DNA from: a virus
Lineage: Duplodnaviria; Heunggongvirae; Uroviricota; Caudoviricetes
DNA: 64,000 nt
Virus record (IMG/VR): IMGVR_UViG_2660238580_000002
Direction: 5' to 3' (one strand)
Shown here: one piece after another, positions 16,782 to 36,420 of the stretch
Numbering within the stretch: position 1 is the stretch's first letter
Layout: each line of letters starts with the position of its first letter
Notes under the pieces: model-generated
Told to the model about the DNA's origin: nothing
The model's input: the letters and a program-made list of their open reading frames with translations, nothing else
The model's database searches: none
Translations under genes and position numbers: made by a program

Positions 16782-17572
16782 TTACGCCAGTTGTACGGAC
16801 ACGAACGCATCAGGGTCAGCCAGCAGCATCAGCGGTGCTGACTGAATCATGGTGAACTCACGCGCCGGATCGCCGGTGGTCACCCAGTTTTTCGGGTAAC
16901 GGGCAGAGGCGTTAATGCCTTCGCGCTGTGCGTCCGCATCCTGAATGCAGCCATAGGTGCGCAGACCGCGTGCCTGAGTGTTCCCCAGCACCATCGTGTT
17001 GTCCGGCAGGAAGTTCTTTTTGACGCCGTTTTCCACGTACTGTCCGGAATACACGACGATGGCCACATCGCCATACATCCCCTTATAGGACACCGCTTTG
17101 CCCAGGTCTTTCACCGCTGTCTCCAGCTCGGAATTAGAGCCACGACGGGTATCCAGCTTCTCCTTGACGGCTTTGAAGGAACGGAACAGCGCCCAGCCTT
17201 TCGGATCGAACACGATGATATTCACCACACCGCTGGCGTTCAGCGCGTAGGCTTCGATATCGTCGGTCGGGTCATACGTGGACTTGTCACGCTTGCTCCA
17301 CTCCGTGCCGCCGGACTGCGTGATGTTATTCTCCTCACTGCGGCCCATATCCACCTCAACCGGATCGAAGGCTTCACCGGTCATGGTGTATTTGCCCTTA
17401 AGCACGGCAGAAACTGCCTGCATCTCTTCGACCTGAGCAATGGCCAGCTCTTCGTCACGCATGTTCTGCATGATGATGCGACGGCGGCGGTAAGCCGGGT
17501 CCGCCAGATTCTGCGGATCTTCATCCGGCAGGCGACGCAGGGTCATCTGCGGATTCACTTCATGCTTCGGCT
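16782..17572 (-). pseudogene. E: Major capsid protein E, 3' fragment (from ...PKHEVNPQ to C-terminus), cut off from its 5' part by the satellite
   Basis: Reading frame continues lambda gpE from codon ~80 onward; no start codon or N-terminus here. Confidence 0.9.
17563..17572. repeat. Left junction direct repeat TGCTTCGGCT (att core within gene E)
   Basis: Identical 10-mer at 30000-30009; E-derived sequence stops being contiguous after it. Confidence 0.8.
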
Positions 17573-17706
17573 ACATGAGTCAAATATGAAAGGATGTGAA
17601 TGATTTGATTACGTTTTAGCTATAGAATTGAAATGGAAAATCCTTGAATGCAATACAACGTGCAATACATGGATGAAAACCATCACTCATTTAACAAGAG
17701 GAATCT

Positions 17707-18612
17707 ATGCGCTCACCCAACAGAATGCATGAACGCTCAACATTTTATAAGTATATGTCGTTGAATACCGCGAAGATTGTTCTTGATTCATGCAGCCTTA
17801 GATGGAGTTCTCCGGTCCTATTTAATGACCCTTTTGATGTTCCAAGAGAAGTTATGCCTGGTATTAACGAAATTAATATTGGCAAAGCTTTAGCCCGCAA
17901 GTTAATAGCGGAGTTGATTACCCCCAGAGAAGACATACAAAATTTAAACCCTAGAATTAGAACAATGCTAAGTGATTTCCAAAAGTCATTTCCTTTAGGC
18001 ATACCCGCAGGATTAATTGAAAGATTTCAAGAAATGGTAAACATTCCACCAGTTGGGATTGGCGCTCCTGCGGCAATACAAGAAATGAAAGATGTCTGGC
18101 GAGGAATGCTTAATAACAGAAGGATTTTGTGTTTATCTGAGAGCCCTATAATCACTCCTATGTGGAATCACTATGCCGATAAATATAAAGGTATAGTTAT
18201 CGAATTTGATTGTGTAGACTTTCTGGATAGCGCTTGGTTAATAGCCAAACCTATGAAATACACAGATAAAATGCCTCTAACTCACACTGCTGAAGGGATG
18301 GCCGAGTTGCTTTTCATGCCAGACAATAAGTCAATTGAATATATCAATAATGAGATAATATTCATAAAAACAGAAGAATGGGCATATGAAAGAGAGTGGA
18401 GAATTTCAACCTACGCTAGGCCAAATAGCACTGGTCAATATAGCGACTTAAAATTTCACCCTTTTGAGTTAAAATCTGTAATACTTGGTCCTCTTTTTGA
18501 TGCCAGCGAGTTCGATGAAGTCGCATCACTAGTTAAGATGTATCCAAGAGCGAAATTATTTAAAAGTTCATTTGGGAACGACAGAAAAATATCCATAGTA
18601 CCACTACCTTAA
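17707..18612 (+). CDS. DUF2971-like protein (uncharacterised satellite cargo)
   Basis: 301-aa ORF with motifs FYKYMS...LFNDPFD, YKGIVIEFD, EEWAYEREWR recalled as DUF2971 hallmarks; only plus-strand gene at this satellite end. Confidence 0.5.
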   Translation: MRSPNRMHERSTFYKYMSLNTAKIVLDSCSLRWSSPVLFNDPFDVPREVMPGINEINIGKALARKLIAELITPREDIQNLNPRIRTMLSDFQKSFPLGIPAGLIERFQEMVNIPPVGIGAPAAIQEMKDVWRGMLNNRRILCLSESPIITPMWNHYADKYKGIVIEFDCVDFLDSAWLIAKPMKYTDKMPLTHTAEGMAELLFMPDNKSIEYINNEIIFIKTEEWAYEREWRISTYARPNSTGQYSDLKFHPFELKSVILGPLFDASEFDEVASLVKMYPRAKLFKSSFGNDRKISIVPLP

Positions 18613-18718
18613 AAGGTCAAATGCTTTTGACAAATAAAATCTATCGCCAGTTTTACTGGCGACTTTTAAGCAACAAAGAACCACCTAAGCACTCTTCCTA
18701 CCTATGGTTTCATTTGTT

Positions 18719-19270
18719 TTAACTTCGCTGATTATCCTTGATATACCTTTCAGCCATATCTGGAATGTTATCTGAGATCTGGTAAGCTCGAATAAATGCT
18801 TTACTGACCTCCATCTTAATGAAGTCCTGATACCGTTTTTCCATGCCAGGAAACTGTCGACAGATCGCAAGTGGAAGACTATCAATGATTGCTCCAACTT
18901 CCCCAGTTAATTTCGACAAGGCATAAGTCGCAAATGCAGTGTCAATTACCTCACCTGTTTCGCTGGCATTCTTCAGTTCCTGTGCGTCGGCCTGCGCACG
19001 CGTAAGTCGATGGCGTTCGTACTCAATAGTCCCTGGCTGGAGATCTGCCTCGCTGGCCTGGCGCAGTTCTTCAACCTCCCGGCGCAGCTTTTCGTTCTCA
19101 ATTTCAGCATCCCTTTCGGCATACCATTTTATGACGGCGGCAGAGTCATAAAGCACCTCATTACCCTTGTCACCGCCTCGCAGAACGGGCATTCCCTGCT
19201 CCTGCTAGTTCTGAATGGTACGGATACTCGCACCGAAAATGTCAGCCAGCTGCTTTTTGTTGGCTTCCAT
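18719..19270 (-). pseudogene. Terminase small subunit Nu1 homologue with in-frame amber codon at codon 22
   Basis: ATG at 19270 reads MEANKKQLADIFGASIRTIQN then TAG (19205-19207) where helper Nu1 has TGG; ORF resumes at Met28. Confidence 0.8.
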
Positions 19271-19515
19271 TGTTCATTCCACGGACAAAACCAGAGAAAG
19301 GAAACGACAGAGGCCAAAAAGCCTGTTTTTAGCACCTGTCGTTTCCTTTCTTTTTAGGGGATGTTTTTAATAAAAACATTAAGTTACGGCGAAGAAGAAC
19401 GGAAACGCCTTAAACAGGAAAATTTTCACAAATAGCGAAAACCCGCGCGCCTGACGCCCCGTAGCCTGTCAGATCGCCGGAAAGGACCCGCCAGCCAGAG
19501 CGGGCCCTAATTTCA
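19271..19515 (-). promoter_or_regulatory. Satellite cos region (cosB-like conserved, cosN-equivalent divergent)
   Basis: Closely similar by eye to helper cos at 36190-36420, but the 12-mer at 19447-19458 differs from helper cosN at several positions. Confidence 0.6.
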
Positions 19516-19899
19516 TCAACCAATCAGCTTATAGCGACCATCCCGTGCATTGCGGCGTACACGCTCAATCTTGAGGCATAGCGCCGCATCTGGCTTTTTT
19601 GGGACAGGTACGCGGCAATATTCAGAAGCGCGAGGAATATTATTTATCCAGTCGATCACTTCACTTAAATACCAGGCCTTACGCCCTTCCGTAACCTGCA
19701 CACGCTCCGGGAACTCTCCACTAGCCTCAAGGTTTAGCAGTGTACGCCGACTCAGGGTTGTAATTTCCATCACCTGATTCATATCAACAAGGCGCTCGCT
19801 TAAACACATTTTGTCAGCGATAGCTTTTAATTCCTCTACAGCTGGATTCGGGTACATCATTTCGGCAATTGGCTTAAGGTCATTGTAATCATTCTGCAT
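19516..19899 (-). CDS. AlpA/excisionase-like HTH protein
   Basis: 127-aa ORF; C-terminal segment resembles AlpA-family HTH; lies next to satellite cos. Confidence 0.45.
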   Translation of the reverse strand: MQNDYNDLKPIAEMMYPNPAVEELKAIADKMCLSERLVDMNQVMEITTLSRRTLLNLEASGEFPERVQVTEGRKAWYLSEVIDWINNIPRASEYCRVPVPKKPDAALCLKIERVRRNARDGRYKLIG

Positions 19900-19910
19900 T
19901 GTATCCCCCT

Positions 19911-20252
19911 TTACACACGAGCCAGCGGCTGAACAGAAATACCTGAGCCAACAAACGCTGCAATCTTTACTGACAGTTCTTTTACAGACTCAGGCCAGTT
20001 CAGAGCATCAACATTTAAGACACCTGTCTTATAGACCTGAGCCCGTGTTTTTTTCGCGGTGTCGATTTGTACAGCGGAAACATAAACCGCTTTACCTACG
20101 CTCGAACCATCCCATACCACCAGTGCACCTGTTGCATCTTCCTGCATCAGTGGCGTAAATGCAGGAATTACCCCTTTATTAGCTGAAAATATCCCCAGCG
20201 TAGTCACCAGTGCTTCAGTGCCAGCCATGAGTTCAGTGTAATGAGTAGCCAT
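19911..20252 (-). CDS. Head decoration protein, gpD-like (satellite-encoded)
   Basis: 113 aa; aligns by eye with lambda gpD (PLM...WDG... core). Confidence 0.65.
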   Translation of the reverse strand: MATHYTELMAGTEALVTTLGIFSANKGVIPAFTPLMQEDATGALVVWDGSSVGKAVYVSAVQIDTAKKTRAQVYKTGVLNVDALNWPESVKELSVKIAAFVGSGISVQPLARV

Positions 20253-20261
20253 TGCTCCCCC

Positions 20262-21302
20262 TTAGCCAATGCGAACGGTAACAAAACGATTGATGCGGGC
20301 CGGTATTGGCTGTGGTGCTGAATGTGTCTGCACATATTCAATAGCCGGATCACCAGGTACAATATAGTTTTTCGGTGCAAGTTCGGCTTTAGTCAGCCCC
20401 ATTCGGATTAGCTCCGGATCCTGAATACCGCCATAGGCGACAATCCCCTGAAGAGCCGTATTGCCAAGCACCATCAAATCAGGATCAAGGAAATGTTTTT
20501 CTGTTCCGTCCTCGTCGGTATAACGCCCGCTGTAAACAACAATCGCAACATCGCCCATATACCCTTTAAAACTCACCGAATCACCAAGGTCTTTAAGGGC
20601 CGTTTCCAGTTCGGAATTAGAACCACGACGGGTATCCAAAGCCTCTTTTATCGCTCTGAATGAACGGTATTTCTTCCATACATTACCACCCATAATGATG
20701 ATATTAGTGACGCCCTCACTAAATTCTGCGTAGCTCTCAATATCATCATTTGGATCAAAAGTTTCTTTATCCTTACTTGACCACTCAGTACCGCCAGACT
20801 GAGTGATGATATTTTGTGGTTTTATATTCCAGTCCAGCTCATAACGTTCAATACCATCGCCCTCAATGATATTTTTCCCCGTTGTGATTGCCTGAACAGC
20901 AAGCCATTCAATACGTGCACGAATAGCTTTAGCTTGATTTACAATCGCCTGTTTAACTTTAATATTACGCGCCCCAAAAGCATTGTATTGCTCAGGTGAT
21001 ACACCAGCAGGGCGCACAGCTAACTTATTTGGATCAATGCTGCTTTTCGGCTTCATATAGCCTGGACGAATTGTTTTTGATTCGTACCCTTCGTCACGTG
21101 AAACTTTACTACCCACCATAGGAGAACAAAACGCTGCAATTGGGATATTTGGATCGTCGATTGTATCAAGAATAATATCGCGCGATTCAAACATTACCGA
21201 GCGAGTAAAAAACAAACTGGTAAACAACGCATTTAGTTGTTTTTGTACATCTACAGCATTAACCACCTGTACAAGCTGGGTAGGCGAATATAAATCAACC
21301 AT
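20262..21302 (-). CDS. Major capsid protein, gpE-like (satellite-encoded, divergent)
   Basis: ~347 aa from Met with AGAGGA RBS; C-terminal half close to lambda gpE (ITQSGGTEWS...DTRRGSNSELETA...), N-terminal half divergent. Confidence 0.75.
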   Translation of the reverse strand: MVDLYSPTQLVQVVNAVDVQKQLNALFTSLFFTRSVMFESRDIILDTIDDPNIPIAAFCSPMVGSKVSRDEGYESKTIRPGYMKPKSSIDPNKLAVRPAGVSPEQYNAFGARNIKVKQAIVNQAKAIRARIEWLAVQAITTGKNIIEGDGIERYELDWNIKPQNIITQSGGTEWSSKDKETFDPNDDIESYAEFSEGVTNIIIMGGNVWKKYRSFRAIKEALDTRRGSNSELETALKDLGDSVSFKGYMGDVAIVVYSGRYTDEDGTEKHFLDPDLMVLGNTALQGIVAYGGIQDPELIRMGLTKAELAPKNYIVPGDPAIEYVQTHSAPQPIPARINRFVTVRIG

Positions 21303-21587
21303 ACACATCCTCTTTGCATTCATTAAAAATAATTGTGGATATATGCTATCACCAATATTTGTCATGCGAATACATGCAACCGAGTGCAATGTTGTATAAA
21401 GTTTTGGGATGACAACTTCAGCGCGGATAATTAGTGTTAATATATTCACTCCCTTTGGTCGGGATTTATGTAGCATGCCGGAAAATTTATTTTTTCCGGC
21501 CTTTTTTATTGGCAATATTTAAAACGGAATATCATCTCCCCATTGCTCATTATCTCCCACTGGTGGATGGCTTCCTTGCTGATCTGC

Positions 21588-21968
21588 CTATTGTTTTGCT
21601 CTGTTCAGTGCGTCAGTAGCCTGACCCTGTTGACCTTTTTTGCCGCCCGGTCGCACCGTTCGCGCACTGATTACGCTGTCTGCGATAACCTGCCAGCCCT
21701 GCCGCGTTTCACCGTTCTGTCCAGTCCACTGGCTCACCTGCATGTTACCCGCCACGCTCAGGAGTTCGCCTTTGTGATGCTTTGCCAGCGCATCGGCTTG
21801 TCTGCCAAACGCCAGCACAGATAACCACATCGTCGCCGTTCCGTCATCTGCCTGGCTGCATGGCAAAGATACCGCCATCCGTGCCAGTGTCATGGGTGTT
21901 CCCTTGCTGGTATGTTTTACCTGTGGGTCGTCCACCAGCCGCCCGTAAGCTGCTATTTGCGCCGTCAT
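21588..21968 (-). CDS. SSB-like OB-fold protein
   Basis: 126-aa ORF with SSB-like pattern (W..VLAFGRQA..L.KG..L.V.G); weak. Confidence 0.4.
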   Translation of the reverse strand: MTAQIAAYGRLVDDPQVKHTSKGTPMTLARMAVSLPCSQADDGTATMWLSVLAFGRQADALAKHHKGELLSVAGNMQVSQWTGQNGETRQGWQVIADSVISARTVRPGGKKGQQGQATDALNRAKQ

Positions 21969-21979
21969 GCTGCCTGCTC

Positions 21980-22222
21980 TCAGGACTTAATATTGATGGT
22001 TGTCACTTCCTCCGCTTCGGCAATCTCCCGTTCGGTCAGCGTGGCAAAGTTTGCAGCCGCCGTTGTCATGAATGCGCTTATCAGTTCGGGATGTGCTTTC
22101 GCGTATCCTTCCCCGGCGTTGCGGTCTATTGCCTTAATCGCCACCCTTAGCCAGTGTTCAGCCATATCAAGGGCGCGGTAATGTGGCTTTATATGTTTGT
22201 TCAGTTTTCCTGATGTGTGCAT
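21980..22222 (-). CDS. Hypothetical protein
   Basis: 80-aa ORF between ori and SSB-like gene. Confidence 0.4.
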   Translation of the reverse strand: MHTSGKLNKHIKPHYRALDMAEHWLRVAIKAIDRNAGEGYAKAHPELISAFMTTAAANFATLTEREIAEAEEVTTINIKS

Positions 22223-22259
22223 TTTTATTTTTACCCCCTCGTTTAAAAAGTTTTTTGTG

Positions 22260-22500
22260 CACCACCACCTTGTCTACCTTGTCTACCTGATTAGTTATCA
22301 GGCCAGTAATGGCGCGGGTTTCAGAGAGGTAGACAGCCCCAAATAGCTGTCTACCTCATCTCTACCCGTCTCCTTACCTGTCTACAAAAATGGGTAGATA
22401 AGGTAGATAACAGGTAGACAGTGAAAAATAGTTATCTACCTGCATTAATACATTGAAATAAAAGTATTTTATTTCAGTCAGGTAGACAAGGTAGATAACC
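22260..22500. repeat. Satellite replication origin: ~12 iterons (GGTAGA[C/T]A core, both orientations) around an AT-rich tract
   Basis: Repeated gtctacc/ggtagac motifs directly upstream of pri-rep. Confidence 0.8.
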
Positions 22501-22511
22501 ATTGCCATTTT

Positions 22512-24263
22512 TTATAAAAACGCATCGCAATCATCAGTAGTCGTTGCGTTGGTCTGAGTGACTCCCTTAACTTTTCGCGTAATATATTCATATCCGTAAA
22601 CTTTCGCCGCTGACCTCATAGCCTTTCCGAACTCATTCACGCTCAAACATTTCCCCTTTCCTGTATATGCCATGAAGGCCATATAGACACGGTAAAGGCT
22701 GTTTCTGGTCGTGTACTTCACGGTGTCACCACCACCGCCCATCATTAGCCCACGAGCTTCCTCCAGAAACTCCAGCGCCGCGCAAAGCTCAACAACCGGA
22801 TCCGTTTGCTGCTTTATTGCCAGAGCTTCATCACCGTCACGCTGTTCCAGTAATAAAGCCCGTGCCTTTTCAGGGTCAGCAAAATTAGCCAGCAAGCGGC
22901 GGATAATTACGGGGATTTCTGCCGCTATCTTTTCCGGTAATTCCTTGTCTTTTTCGTCCTCCCTTACAATGTTGTCGAACCGGAAAATCACCCGACGGCG
23001 TGACACACCTCCGGCCCGTTCGGTAAAGATCATCGGGTCGTTATTGGTTGCCAGTACCACCGCCCTTATTATCGTCGTGAATCGCTTCTCATATTTCGGG
23101 TTAATTTCAACGGGATCGCCTCCCGTGATTTTCTTGATGCCCGTGCCTTCCCCCGTATATTTCGGCTGATCGGCAAGGACGATAAGACGACTCCCGACAA
23201 CCTGCGCGCGCCCTCCTGCATCATCGAGTGATGTCATCTCTGCGCTTACGGTGTTCTGTTTGCCAGCAAGCAGGGTGGCAATATGAGTAAATGTGCTCTT
23301 TCCGCTTCCCCCGTCTCCGGTGGCCTCAATGAACATCTGCCAGTCGTAGCGGTTCGCCATAATCATGTATAACGCGGCACATATACGCATCATCTTGCGC
23401 GGGTCTTTTCCTGCAGCATGTTCAAGCCATTTATGGAAATTTGGCGCATTATCGCGGATGTTTTCCCCTGCTACTGGTGGCGTGTACTCAATACCATTGT
23501 GCGTGGTGCTCCAGTGCTCCGGCGAGTGCGGAGAAAATTCCCCCGTTTTCAGATTAAGCACACCATTAGTGAACGGTAGCAAATCACCGGACGGCTCCCC
23601 CATGGGGGCGGCAATAACTTTTAACGCTTCCACGGCGTTATTGATTACGCGCTTGCTGAACGTGGCCCTGTGCTCTGAATAGATCGCCACCATTTCGCGG
23701 CTCAGCTCCATTGTGCTGACCGGACACCATACCCCGCCGCGCCATACGTGGACGATTTCACTTTCTGCATGAACACAAACACCATCAAAGCGATCGGCAA
23801 GTAGTTGTGCCCGCTCACTGTCTGCCATCTGTGAAAGTTGCGCCTTTTGCTTCGTCGGAAGATTAAGCACCAGGCTTTCCCCACGCTCGCATTCCTCTTT
23901 GAGTCGCGGCAACTGGTCGGATAAATCCACTGGGCTGGTGTCAGTAATCCCCGCGTATTCGTGTACGGTCTTCACTCCAGCCACAGCCAGTAACGTAACA
24001 ATCTGCGTCATGCTGTGCTCTGTGATATGTCCTGCGCGGTAAACACGCACACACTGACGATCTTCATCAATGATCCGGTAATCGGTGATGTTTTTCAGTT
24101 GCTCATCAGCCAACACGACAGGCGGCACATCGTCGGCGGCAATATGTTTACCCGCCCATTCCTGCCACTCTTTCGCATGGCTCCACGCATCACTACCTGC
24201 AAAGATGATTACCTCTGTCAGTCTGTCGCGTGGCTGTTTTTTTAAGTTCGGTGCCAGTTTCAT
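22512..24263 (-). CDS. Primase/helicase replication protein (Pri-Rep, P4-primase family)
   Basis: 583-aa ORF with P-loop GDGGSGKST and helicase-like C-terminus; adjacent iteron ori. Confidence 0.8.
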   Translation of the reverse strand: MKLAPNLKKQPRDRLTEVIIFAGSDAWSHAKEWQEWAGKHIAADDVPPVVLADEQLKNITDYRIIDEDRQCVRVYRAGHITEHSMTQIVTLLAVAGVKTVHEYAGITDTSPVDLSDQLPRLKEECERGESLVLNLPTKQKAQLSQMADSERAQLLADRFDGVCVHAESEIVHVWRGGVWCPVSTMELSREMVAIYSEHRATFSKRVINNAVEALKVIAAPMGEPSGDLLPFTNGVLNLKTGEFSPHSPEHWSTTHNGIEYTPPVAGENIRDNAPNFHKWLEHAAGKDPRKMMRICAALYMIMANRYDWQMFIEATGDGGSGKSTFTHIATLLAGKQNTVSAEMTSLDDAGGRAQVVGSRLIVLADQPKYTGEGTGIKKITGGDPVEINPKYEKRFTTIIRAVVLATNNDPMIFTERAGGVSRRRVIFRFDNIVREDEKDKELPEKIAAEIPVIIRRLLANFADPEKARALLLEQRDGDEALAIKQQTDPVVELCAALEFLEEARGLMMGGGGDTVKYTTRNSLYRVYMAFMAYTGKGKCLSVNEFGKAMRSAAKVYGYEYITRKVKGVTQTNATTTDDCDAFL

Positions 24264-24559
24264 TTTTTGCCCCTGAATGCGTTAATCATGCTTTTCATTT
24301 TCTGGATGTTTCCCCGCGCTTTTTCCCTGCTGATGGGCTTACTGCGGGGTGCGGCATATACCAGGGAAAAATCACGCCGGAACTGATAAACAGGCATCAC
24401 GCAGTCATAGCTATACCCCTCACGACGGTAAGTGATGCGCCGTTCTGCCACGCCTTTAATCGTTACCGTGCCGCCGTATTTATCGCGGTAAATATCGCCG
24501 TTCATAAATTCAGGCCGAGCGGGGCCGCTGGCAATAAAGCCAGAATTTTTCATTTCCAT
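24260..24559 (-). CDS. Hypothetical satellite protein
   Basis: 99-aa ORF, stop overlaps pri-rep start. Confidence 0.5.
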   Translation of the reverse strand: MEMKNSGFIASGPARPEFMNGDIYRDKYGGTVTIKGVAERRITYRREGYSYDCVMPVYQFRRDFSLVYAAPRSKPISREKARGNIQKMKSMINAFRGKK

Positions 24560-24576
24560 ATTATTTATTCCTCGAC

Positions 24577-24798
24577 TTAACTCGACTTATTTGATAGCAG
24601 GGCACTATTTATTGCGTCATTGAGTTTTTCTGCTGCTTCATCAATAAGTGACAACAGGCCATAAGCAATATTTGCATCTTCATTGTCATTTATGCAATCA
24701 AGCCACATATTTAATATTGCTTTTGCTGAATTATTTAAAGTTAATGAACTTTCTGCACATGCTAACAATTTAAAAAAGACTTCCCGTTCTGTATTCAT
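24577..24798 (-). CDS. Hypothetical satellite protein
   Basis: 73-aa ORF in minus-strand operon. Confidence 0.4.
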   Translation of the reverse strand: MNTEREVFFKLLACAESSLTLNNSAKAILNMWLDCINDNEDANIAYGLLSLIDEAAEKLNDAINSALLSNKSS

Positions 24799-24990
24799 TT
24801 AATCCCCCACCAGCTTACTTTCTTCCTCAATCAAAAAACTAGCGACACTTCCCGAAAGACGCGCCAGTAGGCTCGCCAGTGCGGATATATCAGCATCTGT
24901 AATTTTGTTCGGGTATACCTCAAGAAGGCGGCAAATAATTTCTGTCTGGTGCGCACGTTCAGCGGCTTCGTGTAATGTGATTTCCTGCAT
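24799..24990 (-). CDS. Hypothetical satellite protein
   Basis: 63-aa ORF in minus-strand operon. Confidence 0.4.
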   Translation of the reverse strand: MQEITLHEAAERAHQTEIICRLLEVYPNKITDADISALASLLARLSGSVASFLIEEESKLVGD

Positions 24991-25182
24991 TAATGCACCT
25001 CTTTTAATTCATACACTGCTGAAATAATGACTTGTGATAAGCCATATTCTGATGATTCGCTTCTCACCGCAGCAATAGCCGTCTGAACATTAACAGCCTT
25101 CACGTTCTGAGCGATACCAATTGTGTGGCCTAGTGGGTTAACCGCACGAGCAAATACACGGAAGGTTTTAAGCACGGCATAC
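24990..25182 (-). pseudogene. Satellite ORF body separated from its start by IS629
   Basis: Frame is open across the IS629 target site but has no ATG downstream of the insertion; the track ORF borrows IS sequence for its N-terminus. Confidence 0.4.
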
Positions 25183-25224
25183 TGAACCGCCCCGGGTTTC
25201 CTGGAGAGTGTTTTATCTGTGAAC

Positions 25225-26115
25225 TCAGGCTGCCAGATCATCGTTTCCGATGGAAGCATAATAAGCTTTTTCTGCTTCTGCCGGAGGAGTATGGCCCAGC
25301 CTTTCCAGCAATCGTCGATTGTTATACCAGTCCACCCACGTGAGTGTGGCCAGTTCCACTTCTGCACGGTTTTTCCAGCTCTTACGGTGTATTACCTCCG
25401 CTTTGTAAAGACCATTGATGCTCTCCGCCATCGCGTTGTCATACGAGTCGCCTGTACTTCCTGTTGATGCCAGTAATCCGGCTTCCTTAAGCCGCTGTGT
25501 GTAGGCCAGCGATACATACTGAGAACCTTTATCACTGTGATGGACCGTGCCGGACGGTCGACGGGCCCATAACGCCTGCTCCAGTGCATCCAGCACGAAT
25601 GTCGTTTCCATGGACGATGAGACCCGCCACCCCACGATGTATCCGGCAAACACATCAATGATGAACGCCACATAGACGAAGCCCCGCCATGTGCTGACGT
25701 AAGTAAAATCAGCCACCCACAGCTGGTCAGGTCGTTCTGCCACGAACTGACGGTTTACGCGGTCGCCTGCGGCAACGGCTTTCCGGCTGATGGTCGTACG
25801 GACCTTTTTACCCCGGAGAACACCGGCAAGTCCCATAACCGCCATGAGACGTGCCACAGTGCATCTGGCCACTCTGATACCTTCCCGTAACAACTGACGC
25901 CAGACTTTACGCACACCGTATACCTTGTGATTTTCATCGTATACGCGCTGTATCTCTTTCTTCAGCCAGTCATCGCGCTGCGCACGGGCACTGCGTTTAT
26001 CCGGATGATGTCGCTGTTGCTGACAGTGGTAATACGTTGACGGGGCAATATGCAGTTCGCTGCATAGCGGTCCGACCCCGTACTGCTCACGCAGCTTATC
26101 CAGCAGTGGCATCAT
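25225..26115 (-). CDS. IS629 transposase OrfB (DDE, made as OrfAB by frameshift)
   Basis: 296-aa [21 protein letters not shown]... Confidence 0.9.
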
Positions 26116-26438
26116 TTTTTCCAGAGGCGGTCGAACTCCGCCTTCGCAAAATAAGCGGAAGCCTGGCGAAGGATATCGTTACTGCGGCGCAGTTCACGAT
26201 TTTCACGTTCCAGCTCTTTCAGACGCTGACGTTCAGCGGTGGTGAGCCCTCCATCACCGCCCCCGGTATCCCGCTCATGCTGGCGAACCCAGACACGCAG
26301 AGTCTCCGGCGTACAGCCAATCTTTGGAGCAATGGAACAAATTGTCGCCCATTGTGAGTCATATTCGCTCTGACTTTCCAGAACCATACGGACTGCCCGT
26401 TGACGGACTTCGGGGGAAAAACGAGTATTTTTAGTCAT
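26112..26438 (-). CDS. IS629 OrfA
   Basis: 108-aa [22 protein letters not shown]... Confidence 0.9.
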
Positions 26439-26492
26439 CCTGTTTACCTCTTTCTCAGGAAGTTTAGTCTCCAGGATTCCCGGGGCGGTTCA

Positions 26493-26684
26493 TACCTCCT
26501 GACGAATACGGGCGGCAAATATCATCACGCAGCCAGTTGGGGATTGTTGGCGGGCTTCCTGTTCGCTGGCGGCCTCGATGTGTATTACGCGTGGTTGTGC
26601 GGTGCTCAGGGCGATAAAACGCCAGATGTATTTATTCAGGTTGTGCGGGTCCCGCCCTTGCGGGTGTGTGGTATGATTTCTCAT
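26493..26684 (-). CDS. Small satellite protein, last 3 codons replaced by IS629 end
   Basis: 64-aa ORF; stop codon supplied by the IS terminus. Confidence 0.45.
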
Positions 26685-26779
26685 AGCTATCTCGATACTG
26701 TTGCTATCGTTGGTGGTTAGAAGCCCGTTGGTGTTCCTAGCGCCTTCGGGCTTTGCTTTTTTAAGTGCCTCCGTGTTAA

Positions 26780-26823
26780 GGTGGTCACCTAACAGTAAAA
26801 AGGCTAATTCAATAGGTGGTCAC
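26780..26823 (+). promoter_or_regulatory. Two GGTGGTCAC direct repeats (operator-like) in the divergent promoter region
   Basis: Identical 9-mers at 26780-26788 and 26815-26823, 35 bp apart, upstream of the RHH gene. Confidence 0.35.
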
Positions 26824-27015
26824 TTGTCAACAATCAAACGCGATAAAAGTCCTAAGGGTGATGGGCAATCTCCACAATTCAGAATGCGAATTTCTCCAGA
26901 GCTAAAAGAGCAATTCGACAAAGAAGCGCAGAGCGACGGCATAAGCCTAGCCAACTGGCTTAAAGAATTAGGGCGCAAAGAGCTGCTACGGCGCGGTATT
27001 GAACCAAAAGGATAA
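26824..27015 (+). CDS. Ribbon-helix-helix (Arc/MetJ-like) DNA-binding protein, candidate satellite repressor
   Basis: RHH-like FRMRISPELKEQFDKEA...LANWLKELG; possible TTG start after AGGTGG (ATG alternative at 26884); divergent from leftward operon. Confidence 0.45.
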   Translation: MSTIKRDKSPKGDGQSPQFRMRISPELKEQFDKEAQSDGISLANWLKELGRKELLRRGIEPKG

Positions 27016-27042
27016 GAGTAATTGAAGTCAAGGAGCTAACAC

Positions 27043-27399
27043 ATGAAATACGAATTCTTCGCAACAAGTAGCAGTAGTTTGGATGTATACATAGTCACTG
27101 TATCAAACGATTCTAGCTCGCTAATCATGACTTGCAATTGTCCAGCAGGAAGTAAAGGTATTCTATGTAGACACCGTAAAGCTTTAATTACCGGAAAAAT
27201 CCGTGGTATATTCACTCCCCCAAGAAGGAATAATCCCGAAAAGTTACAAGAAGCTATAAATTTAATAACCACATATGGCATAGATAAAACATTAAAGTTG
27301 TACACTGATGAGTTAGAACGAGCAGAACAGACTTGGATAAGTGTTCGCGATAATTTGAGAGCAATGATAAACGCTCTTGTTGAACCACCTAAATATTGA
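27043..27399 (+). CDS. SWIM-zinc-finger-like small protein
   Basis: 118-aa ORF with CNCPAGSKGILCRH (CxCxnCxH). Confidence 0.4.
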   Translation: MKYEFFATSSSSLDVYIVTVSNDSSSLIMTCNCPAGSKGILCRHRKALITGKIRGIFTPPRRNNPEKLQEAINLITTYGIDKTLKLYTDELERAEQTWISVRDNLRAMINALVEPPKY

Positions 27400-27530
27400 A
27401 CTGTTCACATTGCCTATCAGTCGACAACCTCGTATTCTGATTAAGGCTAACTATATACTCACATTGGCGACCAATTCTGGTCGCCTTTATCCACCATTTT
27501 TATAACATCATAGATTAAAAGTGTTAATCC

Positions 27531-28361
27531 TTACCCCCTGAATGGAATTGATGAGGATTTAATTTCCACTGAACTAAATCCTTTTGAATCCAAGAACATT
27601 TTTATACCAGCCTCAATGAAATCATAATCGTTTGTCGGGCCAATAGTAATACTTTTAATTGGTAACTTCCTATGATCTTTATTACCAATGATGATATAAG
27701 GGATGACACCATTATTATTTATTCTGAATTGCACATCTGGTATTAGTATGCGCGGAGTAAATACCAATCTAAATTCATTTTCTTCGATAAAACTAGGATG
27801 TTTAAAAAATGGGATGTATTTAGATATAAATTGATACGTAGAGGCCATTGTTACAAAATGATCATTCTTTTCTTTAATATTAATACCATTACAAGAAAAA
27901 AACGCCCCCAACTCCTTACTCATCTTAGTAACATCGTTATTATTTGAATATATAACATCATGTGCAACACAATTTAAATAAATATTTTGAGAAAAGCTCA
28001 CAAGTTCATCCGCATCAAACTCAATGCAAACACCCTGTTTATTTCCGTAACCTCTCCACTGACTTAACTTATCGTTTTCCTTACAAAAAGAGATGCTATA
28101 AACATGTTTATCAATCCCTTTTTCTTTTTGTAACCTCCCTTTCTCATACATGTCAAGAGACTTGAGCAAAATAGTTTTCTTATCTTTTGGAATGATATTG
28201 TCATCAACTATTTTAATTGTATTTCGAAAGCATTCACATCCATGGTTAGACTCCTCTTTATCATTTAAGAAATATATGTTTGTAGCCCATAAAGAATTAG
28301 AGTCTAATATACCTTTCAAACCAAAAAGATCTGTATAATGAAATATAGCCACAATGCCCAC
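27531..28361 (-). CDS. DUF2971-like protein (second copy; cargo downstream of alpA)
   Basis: 276-aa ORF with FHYTDL...LWATNIYFLNDKEE, SQWRGYG..GVCIEFD, FIEENEFRL motifs. Confidence 0.5.
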   Translation of the reverse strand: MGIVAIFHYTDLFGLKGILDSNSLWATNIYFLNDKEESNHGCECFRNTIKIVDDNIIPKDKKTILLKSLDMYEKGRLQKEKGIDKHVYSISFCKENDKLSQWRGYGNKQGVCIEFDADELVSFSQNIYLNCVAHDVIYSNNNDVTKMSKELGAFFSCNGINIKEKNDHFVTMASTYQFISKYIPFFKHPSFIEENEFRLVFTPRILIPDVQFRINNNGVIPYIIIGNKDHRKLPIKSITIGPTNDYDFIEAGIKMFLDSKGFSSVEIKSSSIPFRG

Positions 28362-28368
28362 CTAATAG

Positions 28369-28599
28369 TTAAGTTGTTTCCCACTCACCTCGAATCCATG
28401 CCTGCACTTCTGAAAGACGATATGCAACAGCAGTGGAACCAATCTTGATCCGCTTAGGAAATTTTCCTTCCTTCTCCAGCTTCCAGCGTGTGCTGTTCGC
28501 AAGAGTGGTTAGCTCCCGACATTCTTTCTCACGGATCATTCGGTCAATGTTAGGAATGTACTCCAGACCCTTTTTATCAACAATTGCCATTTTTTTCAT
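28369..28599 (-). CDS. alpA: AlpA-family transcriptional regulator
   Basis: 76-aa ORF directly downstream of int, AlpA-like HTH. Confidence 0.75.
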   Translation of the reverse strand: MKKMAIVDKKGLEYIPNIDRMIREKECRELTTLANSTRWKLEKEGKFPKRIKIGSTAVAYRLSEVQAWIRGEWETT

Positions 28600-28600
28600 G

Positions 28601-29836
28601 TTAACCAGCCTTTTGTTTGAGGATTGTCACTTTTGAATCAGCACCTGCGATGCTATTGAGATATGTAGTCCAGAGTTCCAGAGCATCCAGTTTTTTAGCC
28701 ATAAACTTACTCCGGTTGTAAACACCTGCCACGCCAGGTAGCGCATGGCCTAACAGTTGTTCTACTACATAAAATTCAACACCGAGATCACTTAGATGAG
28801 TAGATAGCGTTCTTCTAAGGTCGTGTAGTGACCATTGTTTTTCATGGCCCAAACGTTTACCGATTTTCCCCCCAATCTTGCTTACGCTTTCTCTAATTCG
28901 CAGACTTCCCAGCACATAACCAGTATGTTTTGTCTCTTCGTGAACATCCGTTACCCACTGTCGTAGAATTTCAGGTACTGGTCTGACGATTTCAACACCG
29001 GTTTTTGAGTGTTCTTTTGGTACAGTCCAAACCCAACTTTCTAGATCCCATTCGCTCCATTCTGATAATCGGGCTTCACTCATTCGACATCCAAATACTG
29101 TACAAAGCACAAACATTTTTCGCGTGTATTCAGACATTAGTTTTAAATCAGGCTCGACAAAAATTGCCTTCCAGAGCTGGCCCAGTTCGGCTTCATCCAG
29201 AACCCGATCCCGCTTACCTGCAATCTGCCCCACATCACTCATGCGCAAATCCTTTAAAGCATCACACGTCGCGTACTGGCGTACCCGACAAAAACGAAGA
29301 GCTAATTTAGTGTCAGAAAAAACATACGCCGCCATAACTGGTGCATTACGTTTAATTCGGTCAAAACAGTCCAGCCATTCATATAGGTGAGTGTCATTTA
29401 CGGGCAAATGACCGATATAGGGAAAGATATGCTTTCGAAATCTGCCAAGCGTTACAGCATGAGTTTTACGACGCACCTTACAGTAATTTTCATACCAGTA
29501 ATTTAGTGCATCCTCCACTGTGACCGGCTTTAAGCGTTCTTCAGCCTGAATCTTAATCTGGATACGCGGATCACGTTTGTCAGCCAACCAACCACGGCAC
29601 TCGTCGCGCTTTTCTCTTGCCTGTTTGAGTGACATATCAGGATATTTACCCAACGTTAGCCAGACCGGAGCAGCCCGGCCACCTGCTAACCTGTAGAAGA
29701 AAACAAAGCTCACAGCCCCCTTAGTACTCACACGAATAGAAAGCCCCTTTCCATCAGCAATGGTGATCTGCTTTTCTCTGGGTTTCCCCAGATATCCTTT
29801 AAGCGCTTTGTCGCTCAGTTTGTTCTCGCCAGCCAT
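28601..29836 (-). CDS. int: Tyrosine integrase (P4-type)
   Basis: 411 aa from MAGENKLSDKALKGY; catalytic HDLRRT...LGH...Y region; adjacent to right att repeat. Confidence 0.9.
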   Translation of the reverse strand: MAGENKLSDKALKGYLGKPREKQITIADGKGLSIRVSTKGAVSFVFFYRLAGGRAAPVWLTLGKYPDMSLKQAREKRDECRGWLADKRDPRIQIKIQAEERLKPVTVEDALNYWYENYCKVRRKTHAVTLGRFRKHIFPYIGHLPVNDTHLYEWLDCFDRIKRNAPVMAAYVFSDTKLALRFCRVRQYATCDALKDLRMSDVGQIAGKRDRVLDEAELGQLWKAIFVEPDLKLMSEYTRKMFVLCTVFGCRMSEARLSEWSEWDLESWVWTVPKEHSKTGVEIVRPVPEILRQWVTDVHEETKHTGYVLGSLRIRESVSKIGGKIGKRLGHEKQWSLHDLRRTLSTHLSDLGVEFYVVEQLLGHALPGVAGVYNRSKFMAKKLDALELWTTYLNSIAGADSKVTILKQKAG

Positions 29837-29968
29837 TTTTAGCCCCAAAAAGCAATACAAGCTGCAATACAGAGATGATTGCAACACACAGATAACGAGG
29901 AAAATCCAGTGAAAGCGCCAGATAATCTTATTCTTTATTATCAAAGAATTAAGTGTAAAAACCAGCAA

Positions 29969-30244
29969 CTACACGAAAGCCTCAGAAAGCCATGCTAAGT
30001 GCTTCGGCTTGACATATCCCGGCGTAAATTCAGAGGTGGAGCCGCCACGGGAACGGATAACCTCACCGGAAACAATCGGCGAAACGTACAGCGCCATGTT
30101 TACCAGTCCCGGAATTTGTGAGAGATAGACTTTCTCCGTGGTGAAGGGATAGCTCTCACGGAAAAAGAGACACAGAAACAGCGGATCAAACTTAAATTTC
30201 TGCTCATTTGCCGCCAGCAGTTGGGCGGTTGTGTACATCGACAT
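29969..30244 (-). pseudogene. E: Major capsid protein E, 5' fragment (codons 1-82 fused to 9 satellite codons and a stop)
   Basis: MSMYTTAQLLAANEQKFKFDPLF...GYVKPKH then LAWLSEAFV*. Confidence 0.9.
30000..30009. repeat. Right junction direct repeat TGCTTCGGCT (att core within gene E)
   Basis: Identical to 17563-17572; E sequence resumes immediately after. Confidence 0.8.
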
Positions 30245-30299
30245 AAAAAAATCCCGTAAAAAAAGCCGCACAGGCGGCCTTTAGTGATGAAGGGTAAAG

Positions 30300-36189: not shown

Positions 36190-36420
36190 TGTTCATTCCA
36201 CGGCCAAAAACAGAGAAAGGAAACGACAGAGGCCCAAAAGCTCGTTTTCAGCACCTGTCGTTTCCTTTCTTTTCAGGGGGTATTTTAAATAAAAACATTA
36301 AGTTACGACGAAGAAGAACGGAAATGCCTTAAACCGGAAAATTTTCATAAATAGCGAAAACCCGCGAGGTCGCCGCCCCGTAACCTGTCGGATCACCGGA
36401 AAGGACCCGTAAAGTGATAA
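36190..36420 (-). promoter_or_regulatory. Prophage cos site (cosB/cosN/cosQ); cosN 12-mer at 36367-36378
   Basis: Reverse complement contains GGGCGGCGACCT flanked by lambda left/right end sequence. Confidence 0.85.

Follow-up and report, generated by a model that had tools for sequence, protein, structure and literature searches.

The window, that is, the whole 64-kb stretch of DNA that was analysed, carries a lambda-like prophage. Its major capsid gene E is interrupted by a 12.4-kb PICI satellite, with the N-terminal part of the gene at 29969-30271 and the C-terminal part at 16782-17558. The satellite lies inside the helper capsid gene and is co-oriented with it. A 10-bp identity block, AGCCGAAGCA, is found at both junctions (attR 17563-17572 and attL 30000-30009), and a doubled attP arm motif, TGTATTGC, is present at both arms (17650-17669 and 29852-29871). 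In minus-strand order, the insert holds int, alpA, a DUF2971 gene, an IS3 element, the primase and SSB, and then an E-like capsid gene, a D-like decoration gene, the gene of a 127-aa protein that is the subject here, cos, Nu1 and a second DUF2971 gene. The features are as follows.

17563-30009, minus strand: helper-embedded PICI satellite in helper gene E, delimited by the split gene and the identity block
18719-19270, minus strand: satellite Nu1 (TerS) homologue (PF07471, E 3.8e-64), in the Rpp position of classical PICIs
about 19290-19447, minus strand: lambda-type cosB (R3, I1, R2, R1), nearly identical to that of the helper in alignment
19448-19489, minus strand: satellite cosQ (19477-19489) and 12-nt cohesive end GGGCGTCAGGCG (19448-19459), placed by alignment with the helper cos
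19516-19899, minus strand: 127-aa AlpA-family gene, last of the capsid cassette, from its ORF, Pfam and PHROG matches, homologues and dN/dS
19645-19794, minus strand: winged helix-turn-helix (wHTH), residues 36-85 of the 127-aa protein, with recognition helix at about 51-60 and wing at 67-77
19911-20252, minus strand: satellite decoration gene, gpD-like, 113 aa (PF02924, E 6.7e-15)
20262-21302, minus strand: gpE-like gene for the satellite major capsid protein, 346 aa if translation begins at the ATG at 21302, as in its homologues (PF03864, E 5.7e-42)
21343-21351, minus strand: extended -10 TGATAGCAT of the capsid-operon promoter, conserved in alignment
21374-21400, minus strand: three direct repeats (TTTATAC, ATTGCAC, GTTGCAT) at 10-bp spacing, a candidate site at about -65 to -38
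28369-28599, minus strand: canonical alpA, 76 aa, next to the integrase gene (PF05930, E 3e-15)
about 28601-29836, minus strand: integrase gene, 411 aa (the program-listed ORF, 28601-29968, overextends upstream)

By the description of Tommasini, Mageeney and Williams (PMC10111431), the element is a helper-embedded PICI (HE-PICI) of the published 11capE type, with integration site E:Phage_cap_E:80. It matches that type in every respect examined: the site in gene E of a lambda-like prophage, the 10-bp identity block, the doubled attP arm motif, and the order int, alpA, primase, SSB, capsid and cos. The IS3-family element (25225-26438, minus strand) has two ORFs and lies between the integration and replication zones; its ALIL frameshift pseudoknot (26041-26157) was the only hit in an Rfam scan of the satellite. 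A near-identical satellite in strain WP7-S17-ESBL-04 carries an IS1 inside the primase gene instead of the IS3. The two DUF2971 proteins, encoded at 17707-18612 (plus strand) near attR and at 27531-28361 (minus strand) near alpA, are different from each other. Related satellites hold Abi_C or putAbiC genes at these two spots, which suggests that the spots are hotspots for anti-phage cargo.

The preliminary description of this DNA had placed an ORF at 19516-19899, between the capsid genes and cos/Nu1, and a canonical alpA at 28369-28599, and all three statements were borne out: the ORF is on the minus strand, with the E-like and D-like genes on its 5' side and cosQ, cosB and Nu1 on its 3' side. 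Its start follows the decoration-gene stop at a distance of 11 nt, and a strong Shine-Dalgarno sequence, GGGGGA (19904-19909), precedes it. The encoded protein matches PF05930 (Phage_AlpA) with an E of 7.6e-9 and 35.8 bits, above the curated cut-off of 21, besides two sub-threshold HTH-type Pfam matches, and its match to PHROG 2790 extends along the entire protein (E 1e-49). The PF05930 match covers residues 36-85, corresponding to profile positions 2-51 of 51. The nearest solved structure by sequence is an AlpA-family excisionase, PDB 8c3t, with an E of 2e-9. The canonical AlpA of the same satellite is just 32-36% identical to it, approximately.

Homologues of the 127-aa protein fall into 98 clusters, almost every one of them exactly 127 aa long, and come from Escherichia, Enterobacter, Citrobacter, Klebsiella, Salmonella, Pluralibacter, Trabulsiella, Buttiauxella and Scandinavium. 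Among E. coli copies the dN/dS of the gene is ~0.07, and between genera the synonymous sites are saturated while the protein is still ~70% identical. Given the 98 clusters of nearly constant length and the low dN/dS, the ORF is not a chance one; it is a real gene under strong purifying selection. The region is held by 365 of 5426 complete E. coli genomes (~7%). A one-genome-per-species scan for the gene returned five loci, and a scan of IMG/VR returned 80 near-identical E. coli copies, which were used for cos-type and Nu1 statistics only. The family is narrow. A HMMER search of 1.84 billion cluster representatives gave 793 matches to the wHTH alone, with the N- and C-terminal extensions also present in just a handful of 50%-identity clusters; a search with the 61-aa core alone gave few matches, and 50,697 phage records contained no close homologue. 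Wherever the surroundings of a copy were inspected, they were those of a satellite cassette. A literature search found no study that describes or mentions the gene.

An AlphaFold model of the protein built with a 92-sequence alignment averages a pLDDT of 79.8, with the wHTH predicted confidently, whereas a first AF2 model from 17 sequences (pLDDT 56) was too poor for use. The wHTH consists of a strand (37-38), helices at 40-47 and 51-60, a wing (67-77) and a further helix (78-86). Outside it, helices are predicted at 8-15, 19-32 and 105-119: the N-terminal 35 residues form the first two, and the last lies in a family-specific tail made up of the C-terminal 40 residues. The HTH had previously been described as of AlpA/excisionase type and C-terminal; the type holds, but the position is central, at residues 36-85. 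Comparison with known structures gave the highest figure for 8c3t (9.4), followed by the RdfS excisionase (7.9), Pukovnik Xis (6.1), BldC (6.0), lambda-like TerS DNA-binding domains (5.5) and RppC (5.4), so that the fold is that of the excisionase-type winged helix-turn-helix. The wHTH is nearly invariant across genera, which implies a conserved DNA target.

Ten diverse loci from several enterobacterial genera were compared (the window and loci L002, L006, L007, L011 to L014, L096 and L097). All ten share one fixed order: a hairpin, the repeat promoter, capE (346 aa), HDPD (113 aa), the 127-aa gene and cosQ-cosN. The decoration gene adjoins the 127-aa gene, and a 346-aa capsid homologue is present, in every related locus. 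Around this constant cassette the other modules vary, namely the integrase (E-site, fis or other), the regulator beside int (a PF05930 AlpA, an HTH_17 protein in L012 or an Xis-like protein in L006), the primase (D5/DUF5906, AAA_25, DUF927 or Toprim) and the cosB/TerS type. The 127-aa gene, which lies ~9 kb from int, co-segregates with the capsid genes and not with the integrase. In Buttiauxella (L006) and Scandinavium (L096) the same cassette is found in satellites inserted in a gene-E homologue, and the genes called in these prophages beyond the interrupted capsid gene and FI include some of P2 type, for the baseplate and tail fibre (Baseplate_J, Tail_P2_I, Phage_tail_fib). If these prophages are the helpers, the helpers of this satellite type are not just lambda-like siphoviruses.

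In the ~250 bp upstream of capE on the capsid strand there is no canonical sigma-70 promoter and no -35 consensus. Upstream of the conserved extended -10, the loci carry three or four direct repeats of the form TT(G/A)(C/T)AC, 10-11 bp apart and conserved in position in 10/10 loci, with ~22 bp between the end of the final repeat and the TG of the extended -10. The array at 21374-21400 is the sole tandem match on either strand of the 64-kb window, against a chance expectation for a triple repeat of about 0.015 by our own estimate; no second cluster of the motif was found in the helper prophage, near cos or in the rest of the window. The repeats also co-vary with the recognition helix of the 127-aa protein across three lineages only: RRTLLNLEAR goes with TTGCAC repeats, RGTLLNLEKR (L014, L097) with TTGTAC, and RRTLLDMEER, together with an altered wing (L006, L096), with TTATAC. 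In EcCICFT073, a single element, both the 127-aa gene and the repeats are absent.

Two other readings of the array were considered. Replication-origin iterons were rejected, since the repeats stay constant while the primase changes among D5/DUF5906, AAA_25, DUF927 and Toprim types. Canonical AlpA is an unlikely binder: tblastn with five AlpA/Xis queries against the 8-10 kb fetched upstream detected no canonical AlpA in L006, L012 (which has HTH_17 instead) or L013, and all three loci keep the repeats.

Taken with the fold, these sequence comparisons lead us to propose, tentatively, that the 127-aa protein may well bind the direct-repeat array of the capsid promoter and control the capsid operon. 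As a winged-helix protein of the AlpA/excisionase class, the protein would recognise specific DNA sequences and regulate, from within, the self-contained capsid-cos cassette that enterobacterial PICIs and HE-PICIs carry. The cassette promoter would consist of an extended -10 alone, without a -35, and of the upstream array of three to four TT(G/A)(C/T)AC repeats, one helical turn apart, at about -75 to -38, which is where the site of an activator would be expected. Xis, RdfS and BldC, the types of protein that gave the best structural matches, assemble head-to-tail on direct repeats, and this fits the promoter array; several copies of the 127-aa protein could line up on it in the same manner. 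The N-terminal helices and the C-terminal helix might then serve cooperativity, contact with RNA polymerase, or both. Binding would control, and most likely activate, transcription of the genes for the capsid protein, the decoration protein and the regulator itself. A regulator encoded at the end of the operon that it activates needs basal or read-through expression at the start. Of the two roles that the preliminary description had offered, a second regulator is the one that fits, with a wHTH protein fixed in the capsid cassette, an activator-type promoter and repeats that co-vary with the recognition helix.

The excisionase-like fold also brings up a role in recombination, in which the protein would be a second directionality factor or an architectural protein that aids Int at the attP arms. 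Excisionases are its nearest structural relatives, and the doubled arm motif TGTATTGCA (17650-17669 and 29852-29871) shares the core ATTGCA with the promoter repeats. Because of this shared core it is in doubt which AlpA-type or Int domain reads which site, and another AlpA-type protein or the Int arm domain could recognise DNA similar to the promoter repeats. We nevertheless consider the recombination role quite unlikely: it is the canonical alpA that abuts int, the 127-aa gene being ~9 kb away and co-segregating with the capsid genes, and the gene is kept with unrelated integrases, including those of fis-site PICIs, whose attP is described without the arm motif in PMC10111431.

In a further reading, the protein acts in trans on the helper or host, as a regulator or as a modulator that binds other proteins, for example by repressing helper genes or in a TorI-like protein-protein role, and the promoter repeats have another binder. 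A factor of the host or the helper could occupy them in place of the 127-aa protein. Contacts with other proteins could be made through the family-specific N- and C-terminal extensions, and EcCICFT073 has an unrelated accessory gene in the same slot. This reading is unlikely in our judgement, as the helper prophage and the rest of the window hold no further cluster of the motif, and as the wHTH is nearly invariant even though the helpers vary by host, from lambda-like prophages to the prophages with P2-type genes in L006 and L096.

The end of the 127-aa gene brings it close to cos. In the window, 26 nt separate its stop codon from cosQ; the distance is 22-53 nt in the related loci in which cosQ was located. 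The gene would be expressed with the capsid genes and takes the slot after them that in lambda belongs to the packaging catalyst FI. On these grounds the protein could be a packaging factor that, like Rpp, favours the satellite, through contact with the satellite cos or with the helper TerS; this was the other role offered by the preliminary description. The helper cos is found at about 36190-36400, and the satellite cosQ and cosB are nearly identical to their helper counterparts, so that redirection would be unnecessary for recognition. As cosQ and cosN are common to satellite and helper, binding them would not discriminate between the two. The stretch between the stop codon and cosQ shows no conservation among related loci, and a hairpin 3' of the stop, overlapping cosQ, is not significant against shuffled sequences (z -1.26). 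The repeat motif, too, does not occur near cos.

Among the related loci, similarity breaks just after cosN. Across ~90 loci, copies that are 95-100% identical to the 127-aa protein of the window stand beside the lambda-type cosB, the TGGTGGTGG-type and a third type, and a 72%-identical copy (L007/L008) stands beside an Rpp-type cos region. A factor that recognised cosB or TerS should co-vary with them, and the 127-aa protein does not; on these comparisons a specificity for the cosB/TerS type is excluded. Furthermore, Rpp or Nu1 is a distinct gene on the opposite side of cos, and the protein has no sequence similarity to Rpp. The packaging option was therefore not upheld, and we regard it as decidedly improbable. 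A packaging role tied to the capsid or to the vicinity of cosQ escapes the argument from cosB types, and one such variant is that of a head-module matchmaker, which would mark satellite genomes for packaging whatever their cosB/TerS type, with the wHTH on satellite DNA and the N- and C-terminal helices on parts of the satellite capsid or terminase, by analogy with lambda FI, whose slot the gene occupies. This is a long shot at best.

The cos region has further peculiarities of its own. The helper cohesive end, GGGCGGCGACCT (about 36367-36378), differs from the satellite GGGCGTCAGGCG at five positions, and hence satellite and helper ends could not anneal together. In ~90 related satellites GGGCGTCAGGCG is the commonest variant, the others being GGGCGGAAGGCG, GGGCGGCAGACT, GGGCGTCGACCT and GGGATGTATACC; the terminase must accordingly tolerate varied cosN cores. 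The satellite Nu1 carries a TGG-to-TAG nonsense change at codon 22 (19205-19207), within its DNA-binding wHTH, and RefSeq records an identical 'internal stop' in the Nu1 of a near-identical strain. Among nine readable fetched genes of the lambda-type satellite Nu1, the stop was seen in four and an intact 183-aa frame in five. The C-terminal third of the satellite Nu1 differs from that of the helper.

The model PICI EcCICFT073 of E. coli CFT073 (L010) carries capsid and decoration genes. There, c1501 (22084-22497 of L010) encodes a 137-aa protein between the decoration gene and cos; homology with the 127-aa gene was rejected, as no BLASTP alignment was obtained and c1501 has no Pfam family. Fillol-Salom et al. 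(PMC6092414) inserted a tetA marker in c1501, and the c1501::tetA island transferred at 8e3 per ml, compared to 1e5 for c1499::cat (their Table 1). The lower transfer could reflect a role of the gene in the slot, polarity on rppA or the marker itself. In the same study, deletion of the EcCICFT073 capsid and decoration genes left transfer and interference unchanged (PMC6092414).

The 127-aa gene provides a starting point for work on the capsid genes that Gram-negative PICIs carry. Capsid and decoration genes are very frequent in these elements, and in this widespread lineage they form a mobile cassette with its own promoter and its own AlpA-type protein, the proposed regulator. One protein and one candidate site of ~30 bp provide a handle for asking when and why satellites express capsid proteins of their own. 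For annotation, a Phage_AlpA match in a satellite is not always the AlpA of the integration module. In the accessible part of the HE-PICI paper all Phage_AlpA matches are placed in the 'integration' category, and the late-zone copy is not singled out there (PMC10111431). The AlpA family itself was already known; the novelty probably lies in the added helices of this member and in its late-module role.

Among known systems, the AlpA/excisionase family (PF05930) is the nearest, with the canonical PICI AlpA, P4 AlpA/Vis and the GIsul2 excisionase (PDB 8c3t) as examples. Its typical members are about 60-85 aa long, are encoded beside the integrase and act as directionality factors or activators of int. 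The 127-aa protein is about double the common length and has, in addition to the wHTH, two N-terminal helices and a C-terminal tail that is conserved, and its gene lies at the end of the capsid operon beside cos, not beside the integrase. The P. aeruginosa 'AlpA' antiterminator was rejected as a model, since it is Q-like, has another fold and a C-terminal HTH, and has only the name in common.

Rpp, the known packaging redirector of the EcCICFT073-type PICIs (PDB 6hlk/6hn7; PMC6739421), is likewise a small satellite wHTH protein encoded beside cos, and the two proteins share the broad MerR/Xis/TerS fold. In Rpp the wHTH is N-terminal and followed by a long coiled coil, whereas that of the 127-aa protein is central, and no RppA, RppB or RppC chain appears among its PDB sequence matches up to an E of 10. 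In classical PICIs, Rpp is encoded directly downstream of cos, in the terS position (PMC6739421, PMC9026076). The 127-aa gene precedes cosQ and lies across cos from the terS position, which is filled by Rpp or by Nu1 homologues, the latter of several types in HE elements. In the fis-site PICI L007 the two coexist: after the gene of the 127-aa homologue comes cos, and beyond cos the gene of a 143-aa protein with a match to RppC (E 1.3e-15), a true Rpp homologue. The specificity of Rpp for its cognate cosB is not found in the 127-aa protein.

Proteins of the Xis, RdfS and BldC type bend attachment-site DNA or act at developmental promoters, and for the 127-aa protein a similar oligomerisation and binding are putative. 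In genetic organisation, the nearest parallel is P4. P4 delta is an Ogr-type zinc-finger protein (PF04606), and the P4 late promoters have a dyad site and not a direct-repeat array. PF04606 (Ogr/Delta) is not among the Pfam matches of the 127-aa protein, and the folds are unrelated. The gene of the activator delta forms part of the sid-delta-psu late operon, which adjoins the P4 cos region (PMC8628076), and the logic proposed for the capsid cassette would be the same, the operon likewise abutting the cos region. In both satellites the gene of a transcription factor, putative in the case of the 127-aa protein, sits within an operon with genes for capsid-related and decoration proteins that evolves as a unit; the likeness is one of operon logic, not of family.
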